DNA of 64,000 nt, from positions 369,922-433,921 of the forward strand of contig CAVSZB010000005.1 of the NCBI GenBank assembly GCA_963732385.1, written 5' to 3'. The first letter of the stretch is position 1; every line of letters begins with the position of its first letter. The translations under genes were made by a program, and so were the position numbers. This DNA is from an uncultured bacterium (GTDB taxonomy: Bacteria > Krumholzibacteriota > Krumholzibacteriia > LZORAL124-64-63). The notes beneath the pieces were generated by a model. The model had not been told where the DNA came from, searched no databases, and was given only the letters and a program-made list of their open reading frames with translations. Of this stretch, positions 1-48,062 are shown one piece after another.

Positions 1-792
1 CCGGAACGGGTAGCTCTTGAAGATCTTCATCAACGCCAGGGTCCGCTCCCTGCGCATGTTGAACATGTCGTCGTTGATCGACACGATCAGGCTGCGGTCC
101 TCGTGCTCATATATCCAGCGGAGTTCCTGGTCGATTCTCTCGAGTGGCTTGAACCGGATCGTCCTTCCGAAAATCTCATGGCCTATGCAGAAATGGCAGT
201 TGTTCGGGCAGCCCCGCGAGGTGGACAGGGAGTGCGCGTTCCACGTCGCGTCGATATATATGTCGCGCAGGGGGATGGGCAGTTCGGACGCGGACAGGAG
301 CTTGCGGGACGGGTTCCGGACTATTGCGGTGCCTTGCCGGAAAGTGATGCCCTCGATGCCCGCCCAGGGGGCGCCGGCAAGGATCTCGGCGCAGGATTCC
401 TCGCCCTCGCCGTGGACGCAGATGTCCATGTCCGGGATCTCCGCCAGCAGTTCCTCCGTACCGAGCGTCGCGTGGGGTCCCCCGGCCATGAAGACGATGT
501 CGGCGCGCCGGGCCTTGATCCTGGATATGAGCCCCCGGGCGTACTGGGTCGCCGATTCGTCGCTGGTCACGAAGAAGCCCACATAGCGATAGCCGTACTC
601 CTCGATCGCGCGCACGATGGATTCGTCATCGCACTGCGATGTCAGCACCGCGTGGCTTGCCAGACCGCGCTCCCTGAGCCGCGCCGCCACCGCGGATATC
701 CCCTGGTGGACGATGCGCTCGTTCGACATCCCCCGGTCGGGGTTGATGAACAGGATCGCGGGATCTTTCGGCAGGTCATATCCCTGTCTCAT
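1..792 (-). CDS. B12-binding radical SAM protein (runs off the window; not in the ORF track)
   Basis: My translation from ATG at 792: MRQGYDLPKDPAILFINPD...FMAGGPHATL...VHGEGEE (cobalamin-binding motifs)...STSRGCPNNCHFC (CxxxCxxC). Start lies just after the stop of the upstream gene. Confidence 0.88.
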   Translation of the reverse strand, partial: MRQGYDLPKDPAILFINPDRGMSNERIVHQGISAVAARLRERGLASHAVLTSQCDDESIVRAIEEYGYRYVGFFVTSDESATQYARGLISRIKARRADIVFMAGGPHATLGTEELLAEIPDMDICVHGEGEESCAEILAGAPWAGIEGITFRQGTAIVRNPSRKLLSASELPIPLRDIYIDATWNAHSLSTSRGCPNNCHFCIGHEIFGRTIRFKPLERIDQELRWIYEHEDRSLIVSINDDMFNMRRERTLALMKIFKSYPFR

Positions 793-793
793 T

Positions 794-3700: not shown

Positions 3701-4786
3701 CTCCAGCCCGGAGGCCTTGCCGTCCAGGGGGCAGACCTCTATCCCCATCCGGCGCATCCCGGCCAGGTAAGGGGCCAGATCGGTGCCCTCGAACAAGTTC
3801 CCGTTCCGGCAGACGAAGGTGACATGGCTGCCGTTCTCCAGCAGCAGGCGCATCAGTTCGAGTATGCGCATCGCTCCCGAGGACCGGTCGTGGAGCGGGG
3901 GGATGTCGCAGGCCACCAGCACGGCACGAGAGCAATACCGGTCGATCTCGGCGGACAGGGAGCGGCGGTCGCAGGCCGGCAATCCGTGGGCGACAAGTTC
4001 ACCCGCCCATTTGGCGGTGAATTTGGGCCGGTTGATCTCCTGAAAGCGTTTGTACCCCGACAACTCGTCGGTTCCCGCCGTGCCCCCTTCATGATGCTCA
4101 ACCACGGCTTCCGGCTGATAGACCACCTTGAGCCCGGCCTTGCGGACCGCGAAGCAGAGGTCGGTATCCTCGAAATAGGCCGGGGCGTAGCGCTCGTCGA
4201 ACCCGCCGAGCCTGCGGAACAGCTCGGCGCGCACCAGCAGGCAGGCCCCGGAAACATAATCGACTTCCCGCACATAGTTGAACTCCGGCAGGGAGGGGTC
4301 CTGCCATTTGCCGAAATTGCAGCCGCTCCCGTCCCGGAAGACGATGCCCCCGGCTTCCTGCAGCCGCCCGTCCGGATAAACGAGCTTCGCTCCGACCACG
4401 CCGACGCCGGGATCCTGTTCCGGCAGGCGGACGAGAGCCTCCAGCCAGCCGGCCCGGGGCCGGGTGTCGTTGTTGAGCAGGACCAGGTACTTTCCCCGGG
4501 CGACGACGGCGGCCTGATTGTTACCGCCGACGAACCCGAGATTCCTGTCGTTTGTGAGCAGATCGATGCGGGGCGAGGAACGTTCCTGGCGCAGCTCCAT
4601 GAGGTACGTATGCGTTTCGTCGCTGGAGGCATTGTCGATGATGATGAGCTCATAGAGGTCGGCGGGGGTCGTTTCAAGAAGCCGCCGAATGCAGGCGCGG
4701 GTGAGCTCCACCTTGTTGCAGCACAGGACTACGATGCTCACGAGGGGGGCGGAGCCGGAAGGAACGCCCGTGGTATTGCCTGTCAT
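794..4786 (-). CDS. Multidomain fusion: GT2 + GT4-type glycosyltransferase + TPR + radical SAM/SPASM
   Basis: GT2 motifs IIIDNASSD, LLNNDT, VSGACLLVR, YFEDTDLC. GT-B motifs FVGGYNHPSNVDS, APIRYGAGLKGKICSAMAQGLPTV. Helical TPR-like region. Radical SAM RCNFHCHYC and SPASM/twitch CDSPW...CFCC...CRKC. Confidence 0.88.
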   Translation of the reverse strand: MTGNTTGVPSGSAPLVSIVVLCCNKVELTRACIRRLLETTPADLYELIIIDNASSDETHTYLMELRQERSSPRIDLLTNDRNLGFVGGNNQAAVVARGKYLVLLNNDTRPRAGWLEALVRLPEQDPGVGVVGAKLVYPDGRLQEAGGIVFRDGSGCNFGKWQDPSLPEFNYVREVDYVSGACLLVRAELFRRLGGFDERYAPAYFEDTDLCFAVRKAGLKVVYQPEAVVEHHEGGTAGTDELSGYKRFQEINRPKFTAKWAGELVAHGLPACDRRSLSAEIDRYCSRAVLVACDIPPLHDRSSGAMRILELMRLLLENGSHVTFVCRNGNLFEGTDLAPYLAGMRRMGIEVCPLDGKASGLEHLRVILAQRSYAAALLPFYYTAEAFIPFIRESSPKTRIVIDSVDVHYLRRARQFALEGAPDMRLAYGSDKARELAAYRNADAVLTATGQEKVELEHYLDPARVHAVPNYYRPESATPGFSERDGIVFVGGYNHPSNVDSVMYFHASVWPLLKDELPDLRWHIVGDSPPPQIRALAGDRIIVTGHVEQVDPFLRRARVSVAPIRYGAGLKGKICSAMAQGLPTVTSRLGAEGMGLTDGGDIIIADDPATTADAVFRLYRNQALWEAVSCAGKALIETRHSARAIYPAFSGALGLQAAALSDPITPEVAAAEAVSQALALNGAGAADLAQAVLREALQAAPQDASLLLNLALMESFSGRHAEALSRLEVLRKAAGMRALLCAYYGLVLENAGQPRLAWESYALAHKLEPATAWIAKTAARFALRHGMQSEAAACLDRLRVLQPDDQREIAQIIQGHSESNQAEVTGNGSSLRVVFGEGFHPLEGSWRWLGPEGRFKVLDRAKGETVCFDLSCGIAGQYAQFPFDVFVYGGDSSVQSFTFAASAQTIQVRLELEAPETEILIESTQSFSPSSRGQGGDERRLALRFANLRVETADDRAELKAIAPRVRKPATRPFVEAREYRFKGDAKEPAYRAALAGFAANPTVMLELNSRCNFHCHYCRSADSKRQKSFMSPELFRHLLPQLKDITSQPLRLHVDGEPTLHPQFTELALEANRAGHKIFLATNGSNLKPEFLPIDMNIVVNISCSPQELGLRSPMSFEKYVSRLEGYVRDWAAGESGQSLTMKIYTSGLERARPAEIGRKRQFAAGLVSRLEMGSLEAWDGDEMHKRFEYRKENGSTFELVLQPLAEGGLYPNLSSFAQPGAALPVGKGFCDSPWKVLSVLSDGAVCFCCVDITGETTYTRPEEVWSTSLRELWLEHPQIRGYRQELLAGNASLPICRKCLESCPNREQYLFSEIFPFCRDEQSAAVGV

Positions 4787-4811
4787 TATGGACCTCTCTG
4801 AAGATACGCAA

Positions 4812-6347
4812 TCAGTTCAGGATTTCGACTCCGCTGAAGAGCAGGGACAGCCGCCGCGAATCGGTCGAGCTCCCGGCGTCGGAGGGTTTGAACCATGAGC
4901 CGGCGGTGAAACGGATCCGTGCGTCCTGGCGGCCGGGATGCAGGGGCATGCGGAGGATCACCTCGGGACGGCTCCCCCCGAGCGTGAAGGACTGCACCGG
5001 CACATCGTTGTAGTGGACGGAGACGGTCTGCACCGGGGCCGGCGTCTGCCCGGGGCGGGGGCCGGCGACCCGCAGGGAGAGGGTCCTCCCCGACAGGAGC
5101 TGGCCGGAAGCGATCTGGAGCTCTCCTTCCGGTCCCATCCAGCGGGTTCCGTTTTCCTGGGCATGGAACCCGCGGGTGAACCGGATGCTCTCGGCCTCCC
5201 CTTCGACGGACGAAACGACCGTCAACCCGCTGCAGAGCACGGACAGCAGGCGCGCGTCTTCAGCGGAGGCCGGCGCGCAATCGCTCGAGACGAGCCTGAT
5301 GCAGGCTTCGTGGAGACCGGGGTATAGCGGCAGCATGACGGTCGCGGTCTCGGTCTCACCGGAAAAATCGACGGTCTCCACCAGCATATCGTTGTAGTAG
5401 ATGCGGGTGGTGAGCGCGCCGGAGGGAAGTCCGGCCAGGTTGGGGCAGGCAAGCTGAAAAGAGACGGCCTGTCCCGGCAAAAGGAGCCGGGCGTGGACAT
5501 GGAGGACACCCTCCGGGCCCACCCAGCGATGGCCATTGTCGTCTGCGAAAAATCCGGGCCCGAACGCAACGCCGTCGGGCCCCTGCGCGCACGGCGGCGT
5601 GAACAGCAGCCGGACCTCCGGGGAGGCTCCCGCGCGGCCCGGCCGGGACTGTCGGTAGACCCCGGTATACACGAGTTGGGTGGCGCACAGTTCCGGGACC
5701 TCCTCCGGTTCCAGGTCGTGCACCGAAATGTTGTCGTTGACGAGCATGGACCCGGTGAAACGGGTATCGGGGCCGACTTCGCCCAGATACGTGATCCTCC
5801 GGCAGACGACATCCTGCGTCTCCAGGAAGCCGAGGAACTGGCGCTGCGTGAAAAAGCGCAGGTGGGTGCGGTCGAGGATGCCCTCAGCCTGATATTCCCA
5901 GCGACCGTCATGCAGCAGACCGCGCATCAACTCGATGTTGCGGATGTTCGGGAGGCTCACGATCAGCGTGCCGCCCGGCCTGAGGAAGTCCAGCAGCCGG
6001 TGCGTCGTGGCCCAGGGGTCTTTCAGGTGTTCCAGGATGTCCGCGAGAATGATGCAGTCGAACCGGGCCGCCGCGAAGGGCGCTTCGAACGCCTCCACAT
6101 CGACCTGGTGCACGGCATCGAGGACTCTGGCCGCTTCATGCGCCGCGGCGGCGTCGAGTTCGATGCCGGTCACGGTCCTGCCCGGGACCTCCCGCTTGAG
6201 CCGCTCGCCCAGGCGCCCGGTCCCGCAGCCCACATCGAGGATGCAGAGCGCGGACAACGGGACCTCGGCGGCGATCTCCGGTCGGGAGTGCGAGAAGTAA
6301 TCTTCGCCGTCCACACCGGATGCGGCGGTCACCGGAGCCTGGATCAT
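4812..6347 (-). CDS. Class I SAM-dependent methyltransferase with two C-terminal GF..E...RW.GPEG beta-sandwich modules
   Basis: ILDVGCGTG, FDCIILADILEHLKDPW, GILDRTHLRFFT, typical of glycan-locus methyltransferases. ATG at 6347. Confidence 0.85.
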   Translation of the reverse strand: MIQAPVTAASGVDGEDYFSHSRPEIAAEVPLSALCILDVGCGTGRLGERLKREVPGRTVTGIELDAAAAHEAARVLDAVHQVDVEAFEAPFAAARFDCIILADILEHLKDPWATTHRLLDFLRPGGTLIVSLPNIRNIELMRGLLHDGRWEYQAEGILDRTHLRFFTQRQFLGFLETQDVVCRRITYLGEVGPDTRFTGSMLVNDNISVHDLEPEEVPELCATQLVYTGVYRQSRPGRAGASPEVRLLFTPPCAQGPDGVAFGPGFFADDNGHRWVGPEGVLHVHARLLLPGQAVSFQLACPNLAGLPSGALTTRIYYNDMLVETVDFSGETETATVMLPLYPGLHEACIRLVSSDCAPASAEDARLLSVLCSGLTVVSSVEGEAESIRFTRGFHAQENGTRWMGPEGELQIASGQLLSGRTLSLRVAGPRPGQTPAPVQTVSVHYNDVPVQSFTLGGSRPEVILRMPLHPGRQDARIRFTAGSWFKPSDAGSSTDSRRLSLLFSGVEILN

Positions 6348-6995
6348 CGCGTCCGCTTTCCCTTCCGGCCGGCCCCTTCCGGGACAATGCCGCCCTTCCG
6401 GCCGCAAGGCGCGTGCCCGTACGTCGGGCGCACCCGGGTCGATACGGCACCGCCGGCCCCCTTTCCGGCGCCGCCTCAAAACGACGCAATTCGGGCGCGG
6501 ATCGGCCCCTCGGCGGCAACCGGGAGGTAATTGAAAGGTGGATGCCGATGCGGCTGGTGCGCCGCGCCGACCGGGACCGGGCCCGCGCTGGCAGGAAGCG
6601 GAACAGGAAGTGGACGATTACCGGGCGACCCGCACCAGCGTCTTTTTGATCTCGATTTTCAGCTTGTGGGCGGTGATCAGGGTGGGAATGATGAACCGCG
6701 GCAGGAGACTTCGGGTCACCTGGCGACCTGGTCGGCCTGCGGTTCCATCAGTGTGGCCAGCTGACGGCCAGGGGCTACGGGCACAGCCTGCGCCGCGATC
6801 CCCGGACCGGCGCAGCGTCATTCCGGCCCCCGGTCGGGCCAAAAATATCGTGCAATGACGGCATTTCCTGTGCTATAGTCACCGCCTTGTTCATTATCAA
6901 CCTCGCTAGCTTCGCCCCGCGATACTGCCGCTGCTCTCTCCTCGCCACGCAGCCCCAGGCGCGTTGTTTGTTTGTTTGCACCACAGGGGAACAGC

Positions 6996-16196: not shown

Positions 16197-16574
16197 ATGA
16201 GCACCACGAGCCTGAGCCTGGAGATTCGGCGACTGCGGGAACAGTCGGGTTTCACCCTGCGCGGGCTTGGGGCGCTGCTGGGGGTCTCGGCCTCGCATCT
16301 GTCGGACATCGAGCACGACCGGCGCCGTCCTTCGGAAAGGCTCCTCAGGGGAATCGCGCACGAGCTGCGGGCGACCGGCACGACCTTCGAGGCGCTCGAG
16401 GTGCATCTCACCGGGATCGACGCCGAAACGCTCGAATGGGCCTCGGCCACGCCCGGCGTCCGCATGCTGTTCCGCCGGTTGCGCGAATCGGGCCTACGCC
16501 CTCTGGAGTTGCTGCGCACCCTCGAGAAAGCTCTTGCCCGCCTGGGCCGCGGCAGGACGCGGAATGGACGCTGA
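16197..16574 (+). CDS. XRE-family HTH regulator (paralog 2)
   Basis: LRGLGALLGVSASHLSDIEHDRRRPS. Closely paralogous to 15693-16094 (shared EWA.ATPG.R). Confidence 0.85.
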   Translation: MSTTSLSLEIRRLREQSGFTLRGLGALLGVSASHLSDIEHDRRRPSERLLRGIAHELRATGTTFEALEVHLTGIDAETLEWASATPGVRMLFRRLRESGLRPLELLRTLEKALARLGRGRTRNGR

Positions 16575-16987
16575 GCGGGCCGGCGTCGTCGCATGACCCG
16601 CACGGCCGGGGAATGGCTTCGTCGTCACCTTCAGGTTCCACCCGCAGCGAGGCGCTCCCGCCGTGCGCCTAACCCGCCCGGCGGGCAGGCCGCTCGCGGA
16701 GACCGGCCGGCTCACGACTGAATTGGCCCCACGTCAAACGCACTTGATCTTCGGTGCGATCCCGACGCAATGACCCTCTCCGACCGCGACTGCGCGCTTT
16801 CCTCCGCCCCCCGTTCCCCCGATGGACCGCCAGCCGGCGAACGCAGCCGCCGGGTGCCGGAATATCGCTGGAGCACTGCGATTGTACGCGGTGTATGCTT
16901 ACATCACATACACAACGGCAGCAGGCCGAGGCTCGCGGTCCATCGACATCCGCAGCGGGACCGCGAGGAGAACCAGGGGGCGAAGTC

Positions 16988-17347
16988 ATGAAAGCGACCC
17001 TGACGAGCCTGAAGCGCCGCGAGGAACCGGGTCTGCGGGTCTATCTGCGGACTATCGCGCGGTACCCCTCGCTGACGCCGGCGGAGGAATCCCAGCTGCT
17101 GATCGAGATCCGGGGGGGCGCCCGCGAGCCGCTCGACGCGCTGATCAACGCGAACCTGCGCCATGTGGCGGGTATCGCCGGGGAGTTTCTCGACCGGGGC
17201 CTGACCTGCCTGGACCTGATCGCCGAAGGGACCGTGGCGCTGATCCGGGCGGCCAGGCTATTCGACCCGTGCAGCCTTTCCTCCTTCGCTCAATTCGCGG
17301 ATGGCCGGATCCGGCTGACGATCCTGGATGCGATCGTCGCCCTGTGA
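16988..17347 (+). CDS. Short sigma-70-like protein (regions 1.2 and 2 only), possibly truncated
   Basis: LRVYLRTIARYPSLTPAEE (region 1.2), LINANLRHV...DLIAEG...AARLFDP (region 2). No region 3 or 4. Confidence 0.7.
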   Translation: MKATLTSLKRREEPGLRVYLRTIARYPSLTPAEESQLLIEIRGGAREPLDALINANLRHVAGIAGEFLDRGLTCLDLIAEGTVALIRAARLFDPCSLSSFAQFADGRIRLTILDAIVAL

Positions 17348-37547: not shown

Positions 37548-37970
37548 TTAGCGGTGCAGGAACCAGGTTTCGATGACGAACCACAGGGACGCCAGCCCGC
37601 TGAACCGGGCACGTTGAGGCGCGTACGCACAGACTGTCGATTCGGGATCGTCGGCGGGCGAAGCAAGCGATGGTGCGGTCGACTCGGTCAACATTACGGC
37701 CGGCTGGGGATCGGCGATGACGAGGACCGACATCAGGGTCGGTGAATCCCGGTGGTCGCCATCATCCGGGTCGCCGGAGCTTGCGCCAGGGGCGATGCAA
37801 ATATTGAGTCTTGCCTCTGCGGGCGAAGCGGCGAAAAACGGCAGCAGGGCGGCCAGGAACAGAGAGGCACGTATCAACGCGGCCGGCGTCGCGGGCAGGA
37901 AGGCAAGCAGAGAATCGCCGGCGCGGCGCTCCCCGCGAAAGGGGCGGTGACAGGCATGGGTGTCCGGCAT
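37548..37970 (-). CDS. Small exported protein with GDPDDG motif and hydrophobic C-terminus
   Basis: GAGG RBS, hydrophobic stretch ending AEA (signal peptidase I site), SGDPDDGDH, tail [15 protein letters not shown]. Ends 25 nt before the regulator. Confidence 0.55.
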
Positions 37971-38118
37971 GATGACCTCGCTCTTGCGGGAGGACGTGAC
38001 GTCGCACACATCCCTGAGTCCGCCGGAAATGGGCGTACCATTACCCGGCGAGGAATGGGATGTGAAGAGTCCTCACGGGAGGAGGGGGCCTGGCCGGAGC
38101 CCGACGTGAGAGGTAATA

Positions 38119-38174: not shown

Positions 38175-39650
38175 CTACAGTTCCAGTTCGAGCTGCACCT
38201 GCCAGGGACGATCGGCCTGGCCGTTCATTACCGGCCTGGCGAAGTAGAGACGCAGGTTGCCCTGGCCCCCCGCACCGAGAAGGCGACCGAAGCCGAACCC
38301 GGCGTCGGCGCGCCAGCCCGTCACTCCCTCCGGCGGAGCAGGCAGGCCGGCGGCTTCGGCGCGACCGAAGTCGGCGAAAATGATCGGCTGCAGGCGCAGG
38401 TCGCCCAGCAGCGGCACGCGCAGCGCGTGGAGCGGATCGCAGCCGGCGCGCGCGTCGATGGCGGCCAGCAGACCGCGATCTCCGGCCAGCTCGCGGGCCG
38501 GATAGCCGCGCAGACTGTTCGAGCCGCCCAGGAAGGTCTTCCACTGCAGCGGGGCGACGCGGTCCACGCCACTCCAGGCCACGCGCGCCACGAACTCGTT
38601 GCCGTGGCGGTCGAGCCAGCTGCCGCGCGCGCGGGCGGCCAGCCGCAGGAAATCGCGTCGGTCCGGTTCGTCGCCGGCCGGGAAATCGAGGGCGGCGCCG
38701 GCGGCACTGTGCCACTCGGCGCGAGTATCGACCCCGAGGCGTGAACCGTTCCAGGCGAGGCCGGCGGTCAGGGCGCGCGAGTCGAGCGGCGCGGCGGCCC
38801 AGTTGAGCGGCACGCGGCCGGTCTCGCCGGACAGATTCCAGGTCGTGGCCACATCCAGCGCACGGTGCCGCTCCCGCAGCGCCCCCACCCGCGCCTCGAG
38901 CTGTCGCACCGGACACCACGTCACCGCCGCCTCCCCCCAGCGCCGGGCGTGGTACATGGCTGGATCCGCGCCCGACAGGATGGCGTCGAGCGTGCGAACC
39001 AGACTGGCGTTCCCGGCGAACGACGTGACGCCGTCGCCGCCCGCCACCGAGAGCGCCCAGCTGGTCCAGGGGCGGCGGGGCGGCCGGTCGGGACGCTCCA
39101 CCGGACGCGCTGCCGCCAGCGGCCACGCCACGGCCGCGTTCCACACCACCCGCCGGCGCGCGATCCCGTAGCCGGCGCCCAGCGTGATGACGGCCCCCTG
39201 CCGTCCGAGCCGCCGCAACACCGCCCCCGACGCCGGCCGCCACCCCTCGCAGCGGTTGAAACCGGTGCCGGCGAGCGGGCGCAGCGCCAGTTTCCAGCGG
39301 CGTCCGCCGAGCAGCGCGGCCAGCTCCCGGTCGCCTACCGAGGAGAGCGAGTCGAGGGTGGCCTCGTCGAGGCCGGACTCGAGCAGGTCGGGGGTGAGCG
39401 GCTCGTACCAGGCGTCGTCGAGCCGGCGCCACCAGGCGTTCAGCGAATCGATGGCCGCCTCGTCGAGCGCGCGACGCAAAGAGTCGGCCGCGGCGGAATC
39501 CGCCATCGCCGACGCGCTCAGGAGGGGAACCCGCTCCGGCAATGGCGCGTTGGGCGCCTCCTGGTCGCCATTTTGGGCGCGGGCGAACCCGCCGACCGGC
39601 AGGCCGGCGAGCGCCAGGACCAGTGCGCAGACGATACCGGGCCGCCTCAT
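38175..39650 (-). CDS. Outer membrane beta-barrel protein (DUF5686 C-half / BamA-TamA-like)
   Basis: Signal peptide, GFNRCEG, FLGGSNSLRGY (Omp85 lid-like), ADAGFGFG. Confidence 0.65.
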   Translation of the reverse strand: MRRPGIVCALVLALAGLPVGGFARAQNGDQEAPNAPLPERVPLLSASAMADSAAADSLRRALDEAAIDSLNAWWRRLDDAWYEPLTPDLLESGLDEATLDSLSSVGDRELAALLGGRRWKLALRPLAGTGFNRCEGWRPASGAVLRRLGRQGAVITLGAGYGIARRRVVWNAAVAWPLAAARPVERPDRPPRRPWTSWALSVAGGDGVTSFAGNASLVRTLDAILSGADPAMYHARRWGEAAVTWCPVRQLEARVGALRERHRALDVATTWNLSGETGRVPLNWAAAPLDSRALTAGLAWNGSRLGVDTRAEWHSAAGAALDFPAGDEPDRRDFLRLAARARGSWLDRHGNEFVARVAWSGVDRVAPLQWKTFLGGSNSLRGYPARELAGDRGLLAAIDARAGCDPLHALRVPLLGDLRLQPIIFADFGRAEAAGLPAPPEGVTGWRADAGFGFGRLLGAGGQGNLRLYFARPVMNGQADRPWQVQLELEL

Positions 39651-40615
39651 CGCGCTCCTCCCCCGTCCGCGGTCGCGTCGTCGCCGTACGCCACCCCGCC
39701 GATGACGTGGTCGCGAGTGCGCACGAACAGCTCGACCTCGTCCGGCAGCCCCGGCCAGCCGCCGCGCAATACGATCTTCGCCATCACGTCCGCCACGACC
39801 CAGAAGTCCCCCTTCGCCACCCGGCGAATCTTGAACCACGGGATCGCCTTCACGAACAGCGGCAGCGGCGCCCCCTCGGTCATGCCGGCCTCGAGACGCC
39901 GGATGACGAAATCGCTGTAGTCGATCCAGACCGTGCCCGACGGCAGCCCCTTGAAGCGGCTCCTGGGCGTGAAGCGGATCGTGTAGACGAGATGAGCGCC
40001 GAAAAGATCGCGCGACAGAACCGTGTAGTTGTACTGGTCGGCCCCCTCGAGCGTGAAGGGGATGGCCGATGTGGCGTCGGAGATCTGCTCCCAGTCGCTC
40101 TCCACGTCGTCGTCGGTCTTCTCCTTCTCGAGACGGCCGCCGCGATATTTGCGCTCGACCTGCCGCACCCGCACCCGCTGGAAGGCGCCGTCGCGCCGCA
40201 CCGCGAGGCGCTCGACCTGCTCGTATTCGGTGCGGTCTTCGTCGCGACCGCCGTGCTCGCGCGCGACCACCCGCGTGACCTGGGTCCAGGCGTGATCGCC
40301 CATGCGCGCCTCGTCGGCGGCCATCCGCTCGCCGATGCGGCGCACCACCTCGGCCACGCCGATCCGCGGCGCGTCGACCAGGACCGTGTCGAGCGTGCCG
40401 GCGGCGAAGGCGAACGTGTCCTCCTCGGCCAGGAATATGCCGTAACCCTCTTTCAGCGCCTCGTCAGGATCGATGAACCAGGGGTCGACCTCGGTGCCGC
40501 TGCCGCCCGCAGCGGCCGTGGTGTCGGCCGGGACGGGGTCGGCAGCCGCGGCGCCCGCGGCGAGCAGGAGCGCGAGAACCGGTGCGGCGAGACACCGGGA
40601 CCGGAGCGAAAGCAT
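39647..40615 (-). CDS. Exported protein (DUF5686 N-half / LolA-like fold)
   Basis: GGAGG RBS, signal peptide, YNYTVL...VYTIRFTPR...GTVWIDYSDFVIRR. Overlaps the next gene by ATGA. Confidence 0.65.
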   Translation of the reverse strand: MLSLRSRCLAAPVLALLLAAGAAAADPVPADTTAAAGGSGTEVDPWFIDPDEALKEGYGIFLAEEDTFAFAAGTLDTVLVDAPRIGVAEVVRRIGERMAADEARMGDHAWTQVTRVVAREHGGRDEDRTEYEQVERLAVRRDGAFQRVRVRQVERKYRGGRLEKEKTDDDVESDWEQISDATSAIPFTLEGADQYNYTVLSRDLFGAHLVYTIRFTPRSRFKGLPSGTVWIDYSDFVIRRLEAGMTEGAPLPLFVKAIPWFKIRRVAKGDFWVVADVMAKIVLRGGWPGLPDEVELFVRTRDHVIGGVAYGDDATADGGGAR

Positions 40616-40616
40616 C

Positions 40617-41306
40617 CTACCTCCTGTCGCTGGAACGGAACACGGCGCACAGCAGCCGGGCGCTCTTACCCAAAACCGCGCGGACCGGTTCCCGCGCGGC
40701 GCGCGCCACGGCAAGGTCGGAGCCGGGAAGCGGCAGGGCGGCGGCCAGGAGCCAGAGCGGCGGCACGAGCGCCGGAGCCCACGCAGCGTAGTCCGCGCCA
40801 GGCGGCGTCGGCAACAGATTGCACACCGCCAGCGGCAGGGAAACGCCCAGCAGGCCGGCGATCCCGGCCGCGAGAGGCCCGGCCAGTGCCGCCGTCGCCG
40901 CCGCCCGGGGCGCCAGCGGCGGCCGGATCCGCGCCGCGGCCAGCAGCGGAAACCGGGTCACCAGCGCCAGGCGGGCGTGCGGGGCGAGGCGGGCCGCGAC
41001 CGCCAGGTGAGCCGTCTCCTCCACCGACACGAGCAGCGCGCAGACCGGCACCGTGGCGGCCGCCCCCCACGGCACGACGCCGGCCAGCGCCGCGCAAGTC
41101 ACCCCGCTCAGCGCCGGACCCCAGCTGCGCAACACGAGCCGCGCCACGTCGGGCCAGCCGCGGCGCGGCGTGAACAGCACCCCGACCGGCCATACCCACT
41201 CCGTCTCGCGGCGCGCCGCTGTCCACCACGCCTGCACCCGCGCCCGCGTCACGCGCGCCGCCCGCGCCGCCCGCGCCGGCCGCGGGATCAGTACCAGTCG
41301 CGCCAC
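40617..41306 (-). CDS. Site-2 protease (M50)-like intramembrane metalloprotease
   Basis: TM helices, EETAH (HExxH variant), ALAGPLA, NLLPTPPGAD (NxxPxxxxD). Start uncertain. Confidence 0.6.
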   Translation of the reverse strand: MARLVLIPRPARAARAARVTRARVQAWWTAARRETEWVWPVGVLFTPRRGWPDVARLVLRSWGPALSGVTCAALAGVVPWGAAATVPVCALLVSVEETAHLAVAARLAPHARLALVTRFPLLAAARIRPPLAPRAAATAALAGPLAAGIAGLLGVSLPLAVCNLLPTPPGADYAAWAPALVPPLWLLAAALPLPGSDLAVARAAREPVRAVLGKSARLLCAVFRSSDRR

Positions 41307-42679
41307 AGACCGGCCGCGAGGCTGTGGTCCGCACCTCCGCCCGCGCCGCGGAACGGCAGCATGGCGCTCATCGCCTCGCCGGTCTCATCCGCCAGCCGCC
41401 GCACAGCGCCGAACTGCAGCGCGCGCAGACGCTCCGGGCCGAGGCGGGCGGTGGCGCAGACCGGGGTATGCATATTGTAGTGATCGAAGTCGTCGGTGAG
41501 ACGCCGCAGCCCCAGTTCTTCGCCGCGGCGCCACAGGCGCGTGCCGGGAAACGGCACCAGCAGCGCGAAGCCGCAGCGCGCCAGATGGCGGGCCTGCAGG
41601 CCGGCCGCGAACTCCACGGTGTCGCCGATCGTCGCCTCGGTGTCCCACGGATGCCCGATGATGAAGCTGCAGACGGGCGACAGGCCGGCCGCGGAGGCCC
41701 AGCCCACCGCCCGCTCCACCTGCCCGAGCGTGGTGTCCTTGCCCATGGCGTCGAGCAGCGTCTGGCTGCCGCTCTCCACCCCGAACTGCACCGACACGCA
41801 GCCGAGGTCGGCCATGCGGCGCAGCAGCGGCAGCGAGACGGTGTCGGTGCGGGATTCGCAGACCCAGACGAGGCCCAGGCGCGCCTCTTCCATCAGGTCG
41901 AGCAGCCGCTCCAGCCGCGCGGGATCGGCGGTGAGCGTGTCATCGACGAAGAAGACCCCCTCCACGCCGGCGCCGCGCAGTTCCGCCAGCTCGGCCACCA
42001 CGTTCTCGGCGGAGCGGACCCGCCGCCGTCCGCCCGACATCGCCGCCGCCGCGCAGAAGGCGCAACGGCCGGGGCAGCCGCGTCCCGTCAGCACGGAGGC
42101 CTGGTTGCCCGACACGACCGGCACGAACAGGTCGCGCGCGGGGAACGGCAGCGTGTCGAGATCGGCCACGAGCGGACGTGGCGCGGTGCGTCGGACCGTG
42201 CCGTCACCGCCCGCCGGCCCCGGCAGCGCCAGTCCCGCCACGCGCGAAAGGTCGCCGCCGCCGCACACCACCTGAGCCAGATCGACGATAGTGTCCTCCC
42301 CCTCGCGCACGGCCACCGCGTCGAACAGACCGTCGGCCAGCGCCACCTCGGGCAGGAAGGTCCAGTGCGGCCCCCCCGTGACCAGCAGCGATTCCGGCAG
42401 CGCGGCGCGCAACCGGCGCGCCAGCCGTGCGGCATTGCCGGCGCTCTCGGTGGCGCAGGAGAGGCCGATCAGCGGCGGTCGCTGCGCCGCGGTGAAACGG
42501 ACCACCCAGTCCGACGGGCAGGGGGCCGCGTTCATGTCGATCAGCGCCGTGCGGAAACCGGCGCGGGCCAGCGCCGCGCCGAGGTAGGCGACGCCGAGCG
42601 GGGTGGCACGGTAGGAAACGCCGGCCAGGACGTTGGCGGGGTGGGGCGCGTTGACGGCGATCAGCACGACGTCGAGCAC
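41288..42679 (-). CDS. Cobalamin-dependent (class B) radical SAM enzyme
   Basis: PLGVAYLGAAL, GGPHWT, REGE, GRGCPGRCAFC, FVDDTLT, FGVESGS. AAGGGGG RBS with GTG start. Confidence 0.93.
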   Translation of the reverse strand: MLDVVLIAVNAPHPANVLAGVSYRATPLGVAYLGAALARAGFRTALIDMNAAPCPSDWVVRFTAAQRPPLIGLSCATESAGNAARLARRLRAALPESLLVTGGPHWTFLPEVALADGLFDAVAVREGEDTIVDLAQVVCGGGDLSRVAGLALPGPAGGDGTVRRTAPRPLVADLDTLPFPARDLFVPVVSGNQASVLTGRGCPGRCAFCAAAAMSGGRRRVRSAENVVAELAELRGAGVEGVFFVDDTLTADPARLERLLDLMEEARLGLVWVCESRTDTVSLPLLRRMADLGCVSVQFGVESGSQTLLDAMGKDTTLGQVERAVGWASAAGLSPVCSFIIGHPWDTEATIGDTVEFAAGLQARHLARCGFALLVPFPGTRLWRRGEELGLRRLTDDFDHYNMHTPVCATARLGPERLRALQFGAVRRLADETGEAMSAMLPFRGAGGGADHSLAAGLWRDWY

Positions 42680-43028
42680 GGAGACCCCCTTCTGACCTCA
42701 GAGTGACAACTCCGGTTTCGGGCGCCGGTCGACGCGTGCGCGCCGGTCTGCGCTCCACCCCGCCACGGGACCCCGCGATCGGTCGGTCGCGGAGAGAGGC
42801 GGACCGGCGGTCGCCGGCCCCGATCGCGGTCTGCAAGCGCGGGGCCGCGCGCCGACGGAACGTGCGCGTGGGCCCGCCGGCGGCGCAGGGGATTATCGGC
42901 GAAGCCTGCGGGCGGATCAGCGTCGCGCGGCAGCGCCGGCGCGCCGTCATGCAGGTGGAGCAGGTGACGCGGTCGGGCGACAACCGGCGGTGTCCGGGGC
43001 CGCGATCGGGGGCAGGGAGGGCGGCAGC

Positions 43029-45062
43029 CTAGCAGCCCACCGCCAGGGTTGGCGCGAGCAGGCGGTCGATGGTCCGCCAGAGGGTGGCGGGGTCGATCGG
43101 CTTGGCCACATACGCATCCATTCCGGCGGCGCGACAGCGCTCCTCGTCCCCCTTGAGAGCCTGAGCGGTGAGCGCCACGATCGGCAGGTGTCCGCCGGTG
43201 GTCTTCTCCTGCTCGCGAATGGCGCGCGTGGCGTCGAAGCCGTCGAGCACCGGCATCTGGACGTCCATCAGCACAAGGTCCCACCGCTCGCGCGCGATCG
43301 CGGCCAGGGCCTCGCGGCCGTCGCCGGCAATTCCGACCGTGTAGCCCCGGCGCTGCAACAGCCGCTCGATGAACTTCCGGTTCACGTGATTGTCCTCGGC
43401 CATGAGGACGCGAGCGGACGCGCCACCAACGGCCGGGGCTGGACCGGCGATGGCCGCCGCGGTCGCGTCCGCCTCCGGCGCAATGGCGACGGACGGCACC
43501 GCGCAGGCGGACGTGAAGGTGAAAATGCTGCCGCGCCCCTCGACGCTCTCCACCTGCAGATCGCCCCCCATGAACCGGGCCAGCTGGCGCGCGATGCTCA
43601 GGCCGAGCCCCGTGCCGCCGGGGTGCCCGCCGGCGGCGCCCGTCACCTGCACGAACGGCTCGAAGATGCGCTCGAGCTGGGCGGCCGGAATGCCCGGTCC
43701 GGTGTCGGAAACGCGCAGACGCAGGTCGACGGTGTCGCCGCGGCGCCCGGCCAGGTCGACGCGGACCTCAACCCAGCCCGCCGCGGTGAACTTCATCGCG
43801 TTGCCCACCAGGTTCACCACCACCTGCCGCAGGCGCTTGGCGTCGGTCACCAGAAATCCGGGCACCTCGGCGTCCACGCCCCACCGCAGGCGCAGGCCCT
43901 TGTGTTCGGCCTGGGCCGCGAACGACCGCATCATTTGGTCGAGCTGCCGGCGCGGCTCCAGCGACGCGAGGTTCAACTCTTCCCGCCCCGCCTCGATCCG
44001 GGCGAGGTCGAGCAGATCGTTGATCAGTTCGAGCAGGTCGAGCGCCGACTGGCGCGCGGTTTCGAGACAGTCGCGCTGGTCGGCGGTCAGCTCGGTGTCG
44101 AGCACCAGGCCGGTCAGCCCGAGCAGGCCGTTGAGCGGTGTCCGCATCTCGTGACTCATGCCGGCCAGGAAGGTGCTCTTGGCGCGATTGGCCGCCTCCG
44201 CCGTATCGCGGGCCGCGCGCAGGGCCTGCTCGCTCTCGCGCAGGGCGCTCTCGGCACGCACCTGTTCGGTGATGTCGCGGAAACTGCAGAGACGCCCCGC
44301 GGTCGCCTGGTCGCGGACCATGGGCCGGGAGAACCGCTCGAAGACGCGTCCATCCAAGCAGTGCAGCAGGGTGGTTTCGGTTGCGATCGATCCGTTGAGA
44401 TCCTGTACGCAGCGCACGAACGCGGCAGGGTCGACCAGCTGCCCGGCCACATGGGCAAACAGCTGCTCGTCGTCGCGCTGGTCCAACAGCGGCTTCGGGA
44501 TGCGCCACAGCGTGGCGAAGCGGGCATTCGTGAAGACGACGCGACCCGCGTTGTCGACCACGAGGATGCCGTCGGCGGTGGAATCGAGGATGGCGGTCAG
44601 GGTCTGGCGGCTCTCGGCCAGCTCACGTTCCACCGCGAACCGCTGACTGACGTCCTGCATCACGCTGACCCAGGCCGGACGACCCCCGTACACGATCGGC
44701 GTCGAGCAGACTTCAACGGCGAATTCCCGCCCGCCCCGCGTGCGGTGCCGGTAGAGGTTCGGGTGTCCGTAGCGGCCGATCCGCCCGGCAGCGACCCGTT
44801 CACGCGCGAGCTTCTCCTCGTCGGAGGCGAACAACAGCCAGAGCGGCTGCCCGATCAGTTCCTCGCGGGTCCACCCGTAGATGTCCGCCACCAGATAGTT
44901 GCAGTCGAGCAGCAGCCAGGTCTCGCGGTCGATCACGATGACCGGCAACCCGAGGTCGTTGAATACGCCGGGAGACGGGCAGACGTTCACCGGTTCTCCC
45001 GACCTGCGGAGTTCCGCAACGTCGCAGGGATCGGATTGGGAAGGACTCCGGCCTGTCGTCAT
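43029..45062 (-). CDS. Soluble hybrid histidine kinase (PAS-PAS-HisKA-HATPase-REC)
   Basis: FLAGMSHEMRTPLNG, NLVGNAMKFT, DTGPGI, GGTGLGL, VLMDVQMPVLDG. No TM segment. Confidence 0.93.
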   Translation of the reverse strand: MTTGRSPSQSDPCDVAELRRSGEPVNVCPSPGVFNDLGLPVIVIDRETWLLLDCNYLVADIYGWTREELIGQPLWLLFASDEEKLARERVAAGRIGRYGHPNLYRHRTRGGREFAVEVCSTPIVYGGRPAWVSVMQDVSQRFAVERELAESRQTLTAILDSTADGILVVDNAGRVVFTNARFATLWRIPKPLLDQRDDEQLFAHVAGQLVDPAAFVRCVQDLNGSIATETTLLHCLDGRVFERFSRPMVRDQATAGRLCSFRDITEQVRAESALRESEQALRAARDTAEAANRAKSTFLAGMSHEMRTPLNGLLGLTGLVLDTELTADQRDCLETARQSALDLLELINDLLDLARIEAGREELNLASLEPRRQLDQMMRSFAAQAEHKGLRLRWGVDAEVPGFLVTDAKRLRQVVVNLVGNAMKFTAAGWVEVRVDLAGRRGDTVDLRLRVSDTGPGIPAAQLERIFEPFVQVTGAAGGHPGGTGLGLSIARQLARFMGGDLQVESVEGRGSIFTFTSACAVPSVAIAPEADATAAAIAGPAPAVGGASARVLMAEDNHVNRKFIERLLQRRGYTVGIAGDGREALAAIARERWDLVLMDVQMPVLDGFDATRAIREQEKTTGGHLPIVALTAQALKGDEERCRAAGMDAYVAKPIDPATLWRTIDRLLAPTLAVGC

Positions 45063-45146
45063 ACGCGAGCGTCAGCGATGTCCCGTACCCGGCAGGACAG
45101 ACGCCTTTCCTCCTCCCGAGAAATTTCGACTCCCCGGCCCCGGACT

Positions 45147-45521
45147 TTAGCCTCCCGGGTCGGCGGCCGGTCCGGTCGCGCGGACGACGGGACAGGGATC
45201 GAGCGGCGACCAGCAGCGTACAACCGCGCCCAGCTCTTCCAGTTGCGCCAGCAGTTGAGCTACCGCCCCGGCCAGCTCCCCTGGGGCGACGCCGGGGTAG
45301 AGACCGGCCAGCGAGGCGGCCACGGCGGACACGTCGCGCCGGCCGTCGAGCCGCTCCCAGATGGCGGTGGCGGTGGCGTTGAGGCGCAGCACGCCGGGCG
45401 GCACCAACAGCTCGCAGCCGCGTCCGCCGCCGGACTCCTCCACCCAGGTCCAGTAGACCGCCAACCGGTGCGGCCGCATCCGGCCGTCCGCTCTGCCGAG
45501 GCGTGATCTTCGCGCCATCAT
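45147..45521 (-). CDS. PqqD-family RiPP recognition element (stand-alone RRE)
   Basis: LRLNATATAIWERLDGRRDVSAVAASLAGLY...VAQLLAQLEELGAV. GGGAGG RBS. Confidence 0.85.
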   Translation of the reverse strand: MMARRSRLGRADGRMRPHRLAVYWTWVEESGGGRGCELLVPPGVLRLNATATAIWERLDGRRDVSAVAASLAGLYPGVAPGELAGAVAQLLAQLEELGAVVRCWSPLDPCPVVRATGPAADPGG

Positions 45522-45618
45522 GAACCTCCCGGCGCCCTGCGGGGCGCCGCGGCCTGTCTGCGTGGCCCGACGCGGCACGCCGCGTCGGCCGGGCACGTCG
45601 GCGGGGGCGGTCCGACCA

Positions 45619-45750
45619 CTACCTCTGCAGCGTCGTTCCGACGGCGACCAGGACCGTCGCCACGATCGCAGCCAGCTTCACCGGCAGATCAAGCGCGGCT
45701 TCACGGGCTTGCAGCCCGACGAGCACCGCCTGCGGCTTCTCAAAAGTCAT
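45619..45750 (-). CDS. Putative RiPP precursor peptide, 43 aa (not in the ORF track)
   Basis: MTFEKPQAVLVGLQAREAALDLPVKLAAIVATVLVAVGTTLQR*. AAGGGGG RBS 8 nt upstream. An alternative ATG at 45756 overlaps the upstream stop (TGATG). Directly upstream of the PqqD gene. Confidence 0.72.
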   Translation of the reverse strand: MTFEKPQAVLVGLQAREAALDLPVKLAAIVATVLVAVGTTLQR

Positions 45751-45755
45751 GGTCA

Positions 45756-46985
45756 TCACCCCCTTTCCGGGAGGCGGAGTTCTCCCCGCCCTCCGTGCCC
45801 GGCCGACGCGGCGAGACGCGTGTAGACGCGCGCCAGGGCGTCGCCCGTGGTGGACGCAGCCGCGTCCGCGGCGCAGTCACGCCAGGCGGCACGGCAGGCG
45901 CGGCGCTGCTGCCGGCGCTCGCCGGCAAGCCCGGCCAGCCGTTTCGCCAATTCCCGTGGTTCGGATCCGCCGGACCGGATCACCGGCGTGCCGCGCCGCC
46001 AGAGCCAGGTCAGCAGCGGCGGCGGCCACGCCTCGTGGCCCAGCACGACCACCGCGTTCGCCTGTCCGAATGCGCGTCCGGGGCGCGGCAGCGGCGTGTC
46101 GGACGCCAGATCGCGCCAGGCGAGCCGGGCCGACAGACCGAGCCGGCGCGCCTCCCGTCGCACCGCCGCCGCCCCCGCGCCGAGACGGCAGCCGACGCCG
46201 ACCACCGACCAGCCGGGGGAGCCCGGCGCCGCGTCGTGCAGCAGGGCGAGCGCCTGCATGATCGCTGTCGCCTGCGCGTCGGTGGCGTCGCGGCCGATCA
46301 GCAGGGCGAGCCGCAGACCAGCTTCCGCAGCCGACCCGGCAGCCGGCACCGCAGACGCCAGGTCATCCCAGGCCGCCGGAGCCAGCCACGGCAGCGCGAC
46401 GAGACGTCCGTTGTCGCGCAGACCGGTCTCTTGCAGCCGCACCCGCTGCGCCGGATCGCGCGCCAGCACGAAGTCCGCCTCGCGCGCCGCCCAGGCGCCG
46501 ATCCAGCGCGCGTGCTCGTCCGCCTCGACGAACGGCGGCGTCCAGGCCCAGCACCGGCCGAGCAGGCGCGCCGCGGCCGCCGCCGCCAGGGCCCCCGCCG
46601 CGTCCCACCCGTGGACGCAATCCCAGCCGTCCGACACCTGCCGGTCCCCCCGCGGAGCGAGCGCCGCGACACAGGCGAGCGCGGCCTGGAGACGGGCCGT
46701 TCCGAGGTGCGCAGGCAGGCGTCCGCGCGGAATCACCCGCCAGAGCGGCACTGCCCGCACCTCGCCGCCGTTGGTCAGCGGCGCGAAGCGCGGCGCGTTC
46801 TCCCGGTCCGTGATGACGGTGAAGACGATCCGCCCGCGCGTGGCGACGGCGCACGCCGTGAACGGGTGCGGGCCGATCAGCTCGAACGTGCCGGTTGCCG
46901 GATCGCCCGGCGCCATCACCAGCACACGCAGCGGACGCCGCGCGCCCGTCGGTTCGGATCTGTTCGCTGCTGCGGTCCGTGGCAC
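45756..46985 (-). CDS. Divergent GT-B/GT4-like protein
   Basis: PLRVLVMAP start, DCVHGWDAAGALAAAAAARLLG..WAWT resembling GT4 N-domains. AAGGAGG RBS. Catalytic motifs not obvious. Confidence 0.5.
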   Translation of the reverse strand: MPRTAAANRSEPTGARRPLRVLVMAPGDPATGTFELIGPHPFTACAVATRGRIVFTVITDRENAPRFAPLTNGGEVRAVPLWRVIPRGRLPAHLGTARLQAALACVAALAPRGDRQVSDGWDCVHGWDAAGALAAAAAARLLGRCWAWTPPFVEADEHARWIGAWAAREADFVLARDPAQRVRLQETGLRDNGRLVALPWLAPAAWDDLASAVPAAGSAAEAGLRLALLIGRDATDAQATAIMQALALLHDAAPGSPGWSVVGVGCRLGAGAAAVRREARRLGLSARLAWRDLASDTPLPRPGRAFGQANAVVVLGHEAWPPPLLTWLWRRGTPVIRSGGSEPRELAKRLAGLAGERRQQRRACRAAWRDCAADAAASTTGDALARVYTRLAASAGHGGRGELRLPERG

Positions 46986-47198: not shown

Positions 47199-48062
47199 TC
47201 AGACGCCGCGGGTCAGGAACGCGCGCAGCTCGGGAACGGTGAATGTGTTGAGGATCTGTCGGCAGCACAGGCCGGCGTTGCGCACCAGCTCGACGCCGTG
47301 GCGATAGTCCACCAGACGCGCGGCGCGGCGGGCGTTGGGATTGATCGAGAGCAGCACGCCAAGCTCCTGCGCGCGTCGGCAGTAGCTGGACTTCTGGTCC
47401 AGCTGCTCGGGGATGGCGCTCACCTCGACGGCGGTGCGGCACTCGGCCGCCGCCCGCAGGACCGCCTCGAAATCGATCGGCGCCGACGGTCCGGCGAACA
47501 TGTATTCGCTGACCGGTCGGGACAGGATGGTCGTGAGCGGATTCATGATGGCGCGGATGGCGTGCGCGGTGCGGTCCGCGGGATTGGCGCCGTTGCCGTC
47601 AGTCAGGGAAACGATCACGTACTCGCAGGCGGCGAGGGTCTCCTCGGGCAACGGCAGCGAGCCATCCGCCCCCATGTACACCTCCACCCCCTGCAGCACG
47701 GAAAAATCGGACAGCTCCTCGTTGAGCGCGTCGATCTCCTCACGCTGGCGCGCCAGCGCGTTCTCGTCAAGACCGCCGGGGTGTGCGGCGCAGCGCACGT
47801 GATCACTCACGCCAAGGTATTCGAGACCGATCGCGCGCGCGGTATCGACCATGGCGCGCAGCGAGTGGGCGCCGTCGGCATTGCGGGTGTGGCAGTGCAG
47901 AATGCCGCGCACGTCGCACGGCCGCACCAGGCCGTGGCCCTCCTGCCTCAGGCCCCCCAGACGCTTCCGGGTAGCGGGCGAAGGACAAATGGGAACCGGG
48001 TCGGGGTCAACGTTGCTGGGCAAGAATGTGATCCTGGTGAAGGGTTGCGGTGCGGCCGGCAC
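47199..48062 (-). CDS. PHP-domain protein (PolX C-terminal-like)
   Basis: GILHCHTRNADG, GLEYLGVSDH, VLQGVEV. Several later metal ligands appear degenerate. Confidence 0.8.
   Translation of the reverse strand: MPAAPQPFTRITFLPSNVDPDPVPICPSPATRKRLGGLRQEGHGLVRPCDVRGILHCHTRNADGAHSLRAMVDTARAIGLEYLGVSDHVRCAAHPGGLDENALARQREEIDALNEELSDFSVLQGVEVYMGADGSLPLPEETLAACEYVIVSLTDGNGANPADRTAHAIRAIMNPLTTILSRPVSEYMFAGPSAPIDFEAVLRAAAECRTAVEVSAIPEQLDQKSSYCRRAQELGVLLSINPNARRAARLVDYRHGVELVRNAGLCCRQILNTFTVPELRAFLTRGV

Follow-up and report, generated by a model that had tools for sequence, protein, structure and literature searches.

Release of the hydrophobic cores of RiPPs (peptides made by ribosomes and modified after translation) by site-2 proteases (S2P) has been described for the daptides (10.1101/2023.03.08.531785), for the epipeptides with the protease EpeP (PMC8326336, PMC10885120) and for the TMcins with the protease TmcP (PMC13252029). 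Descriptions of RiPPs with a transmembrane core are very recent, and according to the TMcin preprint (June 2026) no RiPP enzymes had previously been characterised on transmembrane proteins (PMC13252029). Here we analyzed a stretch of 64,000 nucleotides (G000:C5:369922-433921, in the following the window, within which all gene coordinates are given) from Krumholzibacteriota, an uncultured phylum for which no RiPP was found in the literature searched. Five of its genes code for a glycosyltransferase (GT)-like protein, a candidate precursor peptide, a stand-alone RiPP recognition element (RRE), a B12-binding radical S-adenosylmethionine enzyme (rSAM) and an S2P-like membrane protein. They probably represent an RRE-dependent RiPP family that is new, has a transmembrane core and includes two enzymes of non-canonical type. 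With it, radical C-methylation and/or glycosylation would join the modifications of such cores.

Comparison with known RiPP systems

The daptides resemble this locus in an RRE, an intramembrane site-2 protease (here an S2P-like protein) and a helical, hydrophobic core rich in branched aliphatic residues, and some of their clusters contain accessory GTs or rSAMs (10.1101/2023.03.08.531785). However, their RRE is fused to the S2P and their leader carries ELExMEAP, whereas the RRE described here stands alone. The daptides' invariant C-terminal Thr is converted by a dehydrogenase, an aminotransferase and a methyltransferase, whereas 0/12 peptides of the new family end in Thr; domains of these three enzymes were not found among the ORFs of the locus. 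TMcins also have a transmembrane-helix precursor, which a minimal S2P-clan protease, TmcP (DUF3267), with four transmembrane helices and distal Asp and Pro matures within the membrane. In contrast to the protein described here, TmcP has HExxH. TMcins furthermore depend on a disulfide, on an ABC exporter and on an escort protein, and no role of an RRE, GT or rSAM is described in the parts of the report seen (PMC13252029). The peptide of the new cluster has no conserved Cys in its core, no exporter is encoded in the locus and a PF11667 match is absent.

In the tmo pearlin pathway (3-thiahomoleucine) an RRE protein, the B12 rSAM TmoD and the M50 protease TmoG act on one peptide, but a PEARL and a DUF692 enzyme are required (PMC9303977). 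PEARL (small LanB-like, PF04738) was not found in G000 (the genome of the window, 96% complete), G001 and G016, and two full-length matches are located elsewhere in G008. A B12 rSAM beside a hydrophobic core rich in Val, Ile and Thr is also known from the clavusporins, the proteusins and the class B C-methylases of bottromycin (PMC10849626, PMC11285071). MpcB and PoyC carry Cx7Cx2C, whereas the enzyme described here has Cx3Cx2C and 463 aa, and DUF5825, an S9 peptidase and a long proteusin-type leader are absent from the locus. Epipeptides combine a short hydrophobic peptide, an rSAM and the intramembrane M50 protease EpeP (PMC8326336, PMC10885120). Their rSAM EpeE is a two-cluster epimerase, whereas the present one has a B12 domain and no SPASM domain and is accompanied by an RRE and a GT. 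The discrete RREs of lasso, LPP and PQQ systems share the stand-alone PqqD fold and a [Y/W]xxPx[L/V/I/F/A]-type sequence (PMC13381572, PMC12710340). Compared with lasso systems, the motif starts with Phe and the core contains no ring-forming Asp/Glu. A lasso cyclase, kinase or leader/signal peptidase was not found among the ORFs of the locus, to which this search was confined, and YcaO (PF02624) was detected in 0/4 genomes searched.

Conceptually the cluster is near the daptides, the TMcins and the tmo pearlin, but it is a member of none. Of the daptides, TMcins, epipeptides and pearlins, the cluster lacks a defining feature of each. The original prediction, which a model had made from the DNA alone, stated that the locus fits no described RiPP class, and this holds also for the proteusin/clavusporin, lasso and YcaO features. 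No description of the cluster was found in the literature, in a search that left uncovered subscription papers and the supplementary gene cluster tables (RRE-Finder, daptide), which could list it.

The candidate precursor peptide and its probable recognition element

The short ORF with a strong ribosome-binding site which the original prediction had proposed as precursor is a real, conserved gene with homologues of 43-45 aa, and it is under purifying selection. AAGGGGGTG is located 5-6 nt upstream of the ATG at 45750. Alternative in-frame starts are a GTG at 45759 (46 aa) and an ATG at 45756 (45 aa), which overlaps the GT stop codon as TGATG. Such an overlap of GT stop and peptide start occurs in G000, G001 and G002 and in the metagenome loci L103, L104, L105 and L106, whereas the GT stop of G016, G008 and L107 is located about 45-60 nt upstream. 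The proposed translational coupling to the GT gene is thus lineage-specific: it holds for the G000 genus and L103-L106, and not for the other three.

The nine orthologues at DNA level have 43 codons each. In pairwise comparison, nonsynonymous differences (pN) are far below synonymous ones (pS), with 0.02 vs. 0.27 for G000/G001 and, in residues 30-43, 0.03 vs. 0.46 for G000/L107. Purifying selection is strongest on the core of the peptide. A protein search with the peptide gave 11 clusters, and the homologue set contains 12 sequences; scans of Pfam and NCBIfam gave no match. Invariant in the 12-row alignment are F3, E4, P6, A19, P23, T32, V33, L34, V37, G38, T40 and Q42. The C-terminal part forms the invariant segment TVLxxVGxTxQ and ends with T-[LF]-Q-[RKQG]. 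All 12 peptides contain no Cys in the last 21 residues and no acidic residue after P23. By hydropathy, the only measure applied, this part is at the level of transmembrane segments, with a maximum 19-residue Kyte-Doolittle value of 2.08-2.24 in 9/9 peptides.

The leader of all 12 precursors reads FE[KR]Px[AIV], which bears out the prediction of FEKP as an RRE-type leader motif, and 12/12 fit [FYW]xxPx[LVIFA]. Discrete lasso RREs bind [Y/W]xxPx[L/V/I/F/A] (PMC13381572), and hydrophobic substitutions are tolerated at the motif's first position (PMC12710340). The leader thus carries a motif of the lasso-RRE type with Phe instead of Tyr/Trp at this position. Among 3503 candidate ORFs of 30-60 codons with a motif like the Shine-Dalgarno (SD) sequence in G000, 28 have an N-terminal [FYW]xxPx[LVIFA] and only two combine it with a 19-residue hydropathy of at least 1.6. 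One of the two is the peptide ORF, which is therefore not a chance find. The stand-alone RRE, which had been predicted as dedicated to the precursor, matches PF05402 with E 7.6e-13 and is encoded by the next gene after the peptide in 10/10 loci. It belongs to a lineage-specific subfamily, which carries the extensions PHRLAVYW and WxPLDP, and has 18 close homologues. Co-folding of RRE and peptide gave a score of 0.23 against a mark of 0.32, with controls not folded, and was used neither for nor against the pairing. On the basis of the motif and the gene order, peptide and RRE very probably form a precursor-RRE pair.

In two studies, RNA-library contigs extend across the peptide ORF, X1 at 45590-45788 with 6 differences and X2 at 45540-45904 with 22 differences. 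One contig of X3 over the ORF has a depth of 625, whereas the X3 pieces listed have 2-12. This coverage is a hint only, since the runs, in which only 0.09-0.12 of the words occurred, had been chosen by means of this stretch and may contain DNA, and since genes cannot be ranked by the depth of contigs.

The single hydrophobic helix would also be expected of a small membrane protein that stays unmodified, e.g., a regulator of the neighbouring kinase or a type I toxin whose ribosome-binding site is occluded, and a CC/TCCC element upstream of the SD sequence is conserved. Such a protein outside any RiPP pathway is very improbable. The kinases are non-orthologous between lineages and present without the peptide, the RRE motif shows no variation and the gene after the peptide always codes for the RRE. 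A conserved hairpin that occludes the SD sequence was unsupported, with z-scores of only -2.1 to +0.4 and differing predicted structures in 10 sequences.

The same z-scores and differing structures left a conserved hairpin 3' of the peptide unsupported. A 9-bp perfect hairpin follows the peptide stop at about 45567-45588 on the minus strand, near the ends of the X1 and X3 contigs (one study). It is not conserved in G008, G016 and L107.

Distribution and gene order

The genome set consisted of 208 genomes of the phylum; 91 genomes of the family were searched for the RRE and for PHP and orf355, the genes on both sides of the interval. The peptide profile matched 7/208 genomes, five of them strongly (G000, G001, G002, G008 and G016); these five are the profile's own rows, so the search shows no further copies, not new ones. 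The weak matches in G092 and G040 (E 0.007 and 0.0096) were regarded as chance matches. The GT profile detected the same 5/208 genomes, and the RRE was found in 9/91 family genomes, with strong matches in the same five, which belong to one family. The profile of the S2P-like protein matched 4/208 genomes, all five but G008. At E 1e-45 the rSAM was detected in 24/208 genomes, including four orthologues with at least 70% identity, G008 excluded. The rSAM orthologues and S2P-like genes are restricted to the peptide/RRE clade, which supports the original prediction.

With the RRE profile 37 metagenome loci were identified. Five of them carry an RRE orthologue, all five with GT and peptide upstream, and the other 32 contain generic PqqD genes without this peptide. 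Among the five, only L105 is long enough for rSAM and protease and has both. GT, peptide and RRE are contiguous in 10/10 loci, and rSAM and protease follow in 5/6 judgeable loci (G001 is split over three contigs), which represent two lineages with these genes and one without. A hydrophobic peptide with an FxKP-type leader, which was to be looked for near homologues, thus lies beside the RRE orthologue in 10/10 loci. Since PHP and orf355 are only 0.5-1.5 kb apart in 7/11 hand-picked relatives (overall range 0.5-10.6 kb, with varied cargo), the five genes fill one lineage-specific interval.

The hybrid kinase inside this interval had been listed in the original prediction among the genes downstream of the peptide. 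The kinases of G016 and G008 are non-orthologous (31-38% identity) and oppositely oriented, and the interval also contains hybrid kinases in G006, G012 and G091, all without the peptide. The kinase therefore probably lies outside the system. In G002 (L071 13790, 16470-17304) kinase and rSAM are each frameshifted and the protease gene enters a low-GC contig end; these are probably assembly errors.

The GT4-like protein

The GT-like gene, which the mechanism proposed originally had omitted, is located directly upstream of the peptide in 10/10 loci and shares its five-genome distribution; it is the most tightly linked enzyme. Scans of Pfam and NCBIfam gave no match for the ORF in the window. The orthologue in G016 matches PF13579 (E 5.9e-6), and the Atlas features of the protein are 0.95-0.96 to GT4 clusters. 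A low-confidence model (pLDDT 54.5) matches MshA with E 2.4e-8 and BshA with Z 11.9 (rmsd 17.3, 244 aligned), by which the protein is predicted to have a GT-B fold. EX7E is the donor-binding motif of GT4 enzymes. Its first Glu (E318) is invariant in 7/7 GT sequences. A precedent for a GT4 in a RiPP cluster is Cao24 of cacaoidin (PMC8068269).

The B12 radical SAM enzyme

The best NCBIfam scores of the rSAM were obtained for ApyD (139.5 bits) and HpnJ (132.9 bits), and all scores are far below the cut-off. By analogy to PoyB/C and BotRMT, poly-C-methylation of the core had been predicted. This analogy is weakened, as TIGR03975 gives 63.7 bits at a cut-off of 281.85, and it points to a different subfamily, because PoyC and MpcB carry Cx7Cx2C (PMC11285071, PMC10849626) instead of Cx3Cx2C. 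Assignment to the PoyC/MpcB poly-methylase family was therefore rejected. The closest solved structures are AprD4 (6FD2, E 1.4e-23), an enzyme of apramycin biosynthesis named sugar dehydratase, the protein C-methylase QCMT (PDB 9CCB, E 4e-20) and CysS.

The predicted mechanism as a whole, with poly-C-methylation of a Val/Ile/Ala/Thr core by the rSAM to a ladder like that of clavusporin or polytheonamide, release by the S2P and an incidental GT, is unlikely. Consistent with it are the aliphatic-rich invariant core, the class B architecture of the rSAM, the rank of QCMT as second-closest structure and the clavusporins, in which Pro, Val, Ile and Thr are beta-methylated (PMC10849626). Besides the family mismatch, it does not agree with the constant position and distribution of the GT or with G008, which retains the peptide without the rSAM. 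The persistence of GT, peptide and RRE in G008 would instead be explained if the GT glycosylated a Thr of the core and the rSAM tailored the sugar, by C-methylation or an AprD4-like deoxygenation, and not the peptide backbone. The rank of AprD4 as closest structure and the glycan genes around the relatives in L003 and L006 (a reading of their ORFs) point in the same direction. This is hardly probable, given that no GT lies beside the rSAM in the RRE-linked loci L004, L017 and L153, that the cluster contains no nucleotide-sugar genes and that the GT motifs are degenerate.

A first tree of the rSAM (45 rows, quick mode, two duplicate rows dropped) was unresolved. A second quick-mode tree was calculated from 28 hand-chosen rows, 19 of the first set and nine new ones. 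The orthologues group with the enzyme of G134 (support 95; short contig, no RRE seen). The next sister group (SH-aLRT 89) comprises the enzymes of L004, L017 and L153; an RRE is present in 3/3 of these loci, and L004 and L153 additionally contain a precursor-like ORF and an RRE-SPASM enzyme. These relatives weakly favour a peptide-modifying role.

The three loci contain further RiPP-like genes. L004 (7280-16070 onward), from a Thermodesulfobacteriota metagenome-assembled genome (MAG), is a separate RiPP-like cluster. Its precursor-like ORF has 77 aa with an FxxP leader motif, a Cys/Gly middle and a hydrophobic tail, and besides RRE, B12 rSAM and RRE-SPASM rSAM it contains ABC genes, an Rce1-like protease, a second RRE and a second B12 rSAM. 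L153 (3505-8566, G133:C223) is a divergent cluster with a 52-aa CxxCxxC precursor-like ORF, an RRE-SPASM rSAM, an ABC transporter and the closest non-orthologous B12 rSAM (36%). In L017 (7501-9371), from a Bryobacteraceae MAG, an RRE lies directly before the B12 rSAM and after a sigma54 regulator, with a Cys-containing small ORF upstream. Its VRLAHVW motif resembles the N-terminal extension of the cluster RRE.

The S2P-like protein

The membrane protein had been predicted to be an M50-like protease. A suggested site-2 fold and the distal Pro/Asp agree with this, and the lack of the HExxH motif does not: EExxH was found in 10/10 sequences and HExxH in 0/10. ALAGP and the distal Pro/Asp third-ligand motif, A[LV]PxxG[ST]D or ALPFRD, are also present in 10/10 sequences. 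No match was obtained in scans of Pfam and NCBIfam, the genome scans with PF11667 and PF02163 miss the gene (PF11667 even at E 5), and a PDB profile search with alignment A8 gave 0 matches. The family is small, with nine representatives in 1.84 billion. In a VIA comparison of the AF2 model (pLDDT 87.2), SpoIVFB was first (Z 9.7, rmsd 3.5, 144 aligned), followed by the S2P of M. jannaschii (Z 7.9, rmsd 4.7, 145 aligned), and RseP reached Z 6.2. Foldseek ranks these S2P structures 1, 3 and 4, although at E-values of 0.83 or higher, and no match reached E 0.001. The model is suggestive of an S2P core fold. The nearest named Atlas cluster is DUF3267 (0.84), which is a lead only. No paper on a site-2 protease with EExxH was found in the literature search.

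Proposed pathway and alternatives

From the observed anatomy, conservation and co-occurrence of the genes we infer an RRE-dependent RiPP pathway in which a precursor with a C-terminal transmembrane-type helix is modified and then cleaved, a reading to which we give an even chance. The RRE would bind FE[KR]Px[AIV] as a beta-strand. The GT4-like protein, presumably co-transcribed with peptide and RRE, would act first or as a scaffold and, if active, would O-glycosylate the invariant Thr32 and/or Thr40. The B12 rSAM would add one or few radical C-methylations to TVLxxVGxTxQ; poly-C-methylation is only one option for the product chemistry. The EExxH protein would bind zinc via Glu/His/Asp and cut near A19-L-x-L-P23 at the cytoplasmic face, and would thereby release a helical, modified peptide about 20-24 residues long which acts in or on membranes. 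The genes include none for a dedicated exporter, so the producer's own membrane may retain the product. A more specific version is rather unlikely: a new membrane-made RiPP class in which the RRE passes a single-helix precursor to the divergent GT4 and the B12 rSAM for glycosylation and C-methylation of the invariant Thr/Val face, and an active EExxH protease, its Glu/His/Asp zinc site being non-canonical, frees a transmembrane peptide, glyco-methylated, which the envelope of the producer keeps.

Several observations weigh against the proposed pathway. The locus contains no exporter. In the GT, the second Glu of EX7E is absent at the aligned column in 7/7 sequences; position +8 is T, A or G, and in G008 a Glu lies one column later. 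From these residues the enzyme may be active with an unusual donor or may be a pseudo-enzyme, and catalytic activity on the peptide is slightly on the doubtful side. In the S2P-like protein a Glu stands in place of the first zinc His in 10/10 sequences, and the S2P match stays below Z of about 13, the tool's mark for helical proteins. The invariant E-E-x-x-H...D set may build a zinc site of Glu, His and Asp that keeps the catalytic Glu, or else the protein may be an escort without activity; we slightly favour an active protease. Support for the RRE-linked sister group of the rSAM is below 95, and the next relatives (L003, L005 and L006) have no RRE. All five genes occur together in only two independent lineages, the G000 genus and G016, and in G016 an oppositely oriented kinase splits GT-peptide-RRE and rSAM-protease into two transcription units. 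Finally, G008 (98% complete) keeps the GT, an intact peptide (67% identity) and the RRE without orthologues of rSAM and protease, and its intact peptide counts against an obligatory rSAM step.

The content of G008 is also what would be expected of two independent modules in one insertion hotspot. GT-peptide-RRE would then be a glycopeptide system, or RRE and pseudo-GT would serve a small membrane protein as a pair of chaperones, and rSAM and EExxH protein would modify, e.g., a lipid or a protein. The kinase and, in G016, the orientation separate the two parts, the score of the rSAM for HpnJ is near that for ApyD, and the cargo of the interval is varied in relatives. Such a coincidence is quite improbable, since none of the 208 genomes has an rSAM orthologue or EExxH gene without GT-peptide-RRE, the nearest relatives of the rSAM are RRE-linked, and G008 additionally lost the widespread orf355, which adjoins rSAM and protease in the window. 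In a quick PHP tree of 24 rows G008 nests between G016 and the G000 genus (SH-aLRT 87 and 88), and its adjoining Omp85-like gene has a GC content at third codon positions of 0.66 vs. 0.90-0.91 upstream. Because G008 nests within the tree and orf355 was not found in it, secondary loss is favoured; rSAM and protease were probably lost at a remodelled junction. In the proposed pathway G008 would thus represent a secondary loss of the methylation and cleavage steps. We consider it likely that rSAM and protease belong to the same pathway as the precursor-RRE pair.

Two questions of enzymology arise: does EExxH allow a protein with an S2P fold to work, and does an EX7E-deficient GT4 act as a peptide glycosyltransferase guided by the RRE or as a scaffold of pseudo-enzyme type? 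G008 provides a natural deletion variant, and the five-gene system is small enough for co-expression. Its general impact is limited because of the narrow range (5/208 genomes of the phylum).

Genomic setting

The genes of the interval and its boundaries are listed in Table 1. A sigma-70/terminator scan detected nothing inside the cluster. Beyond orf355 an Omp85-like gene and a TPR-sigma54 activator follow on the minus strand. Two close homologues, P0011 and P0038, carry Candidatus Krumholzibacteriia as source name.

Table 1. Genes of the precursor-RRE interval and the genes at its borders (positions within the window).
Feature	Position	Strand	Remarks
PHP-domain gene	47199..48062	minus	left boundary; present in 80/91 family genomes; outside the system
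Divergent GT-B / GT4-like protein, 409 aa	45756..46985	minus	predicted from fold matches; no Pfam/NCBIfam match
Candidate precursor peptide, 43 aa	45619..45750	minus	ATG 45750, stop 45619; 45 aa if ATG 45756
Stand-alone RRE, PqqD fold, 124 aa	45147..45521	minus	PF05402, E 7.6e-13
Soluble PAS hybrid histidine kinase	43029..45062	minus	PAS-HisKA-HATPase-REC; within the interval, probably outside the system
B12-binding rSAM, 463 aa	41288..42679	minus	PF04055, E 5e-24; PF02310, E 2.9e-20; Cx3Cx2C; no SPASM
Minimal membrane protein with suggested S2P fold, 229 aa	40617..41306	minus	EExxH; start uncertain, 41306 or about 41237
orf355 (weak DUF5686/LolA-like matches)	39647..40714	minus	right boundary; present in 70/91 family genomes; outside the system

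Between the Omp85-like gene and the TPR-sigma54 activator a small, probably exported ORF is located at 37548-38009 (minus strand), for which no Pfam match was found. The same family occurs in L070 (3890-4528), L105 (8665-9129) and L088 (14162-14635) and is duplicated in G008. It has a conserved GDPDDG(D/E)H(R/K) motif and could be a signalling peptide for the activator. At the start of the window (1-6479, together with G000:C5:366170-370632), three tandem B12 rSAM genes, a 1330-aa GT2-GT4-rSAM/SPASM fusion and a methyltransferase were found. This locus is probably involved in glycan modification and unrelated to the peptide cluster. Outside the window, at G000:C5:5321-5904, lies another stand-alone RRE. 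The ORF that precedes it has 67 aa and a YxxP motif, and an ABC-transporter-like gene is nearby; this is a possible lasso-like cluster.

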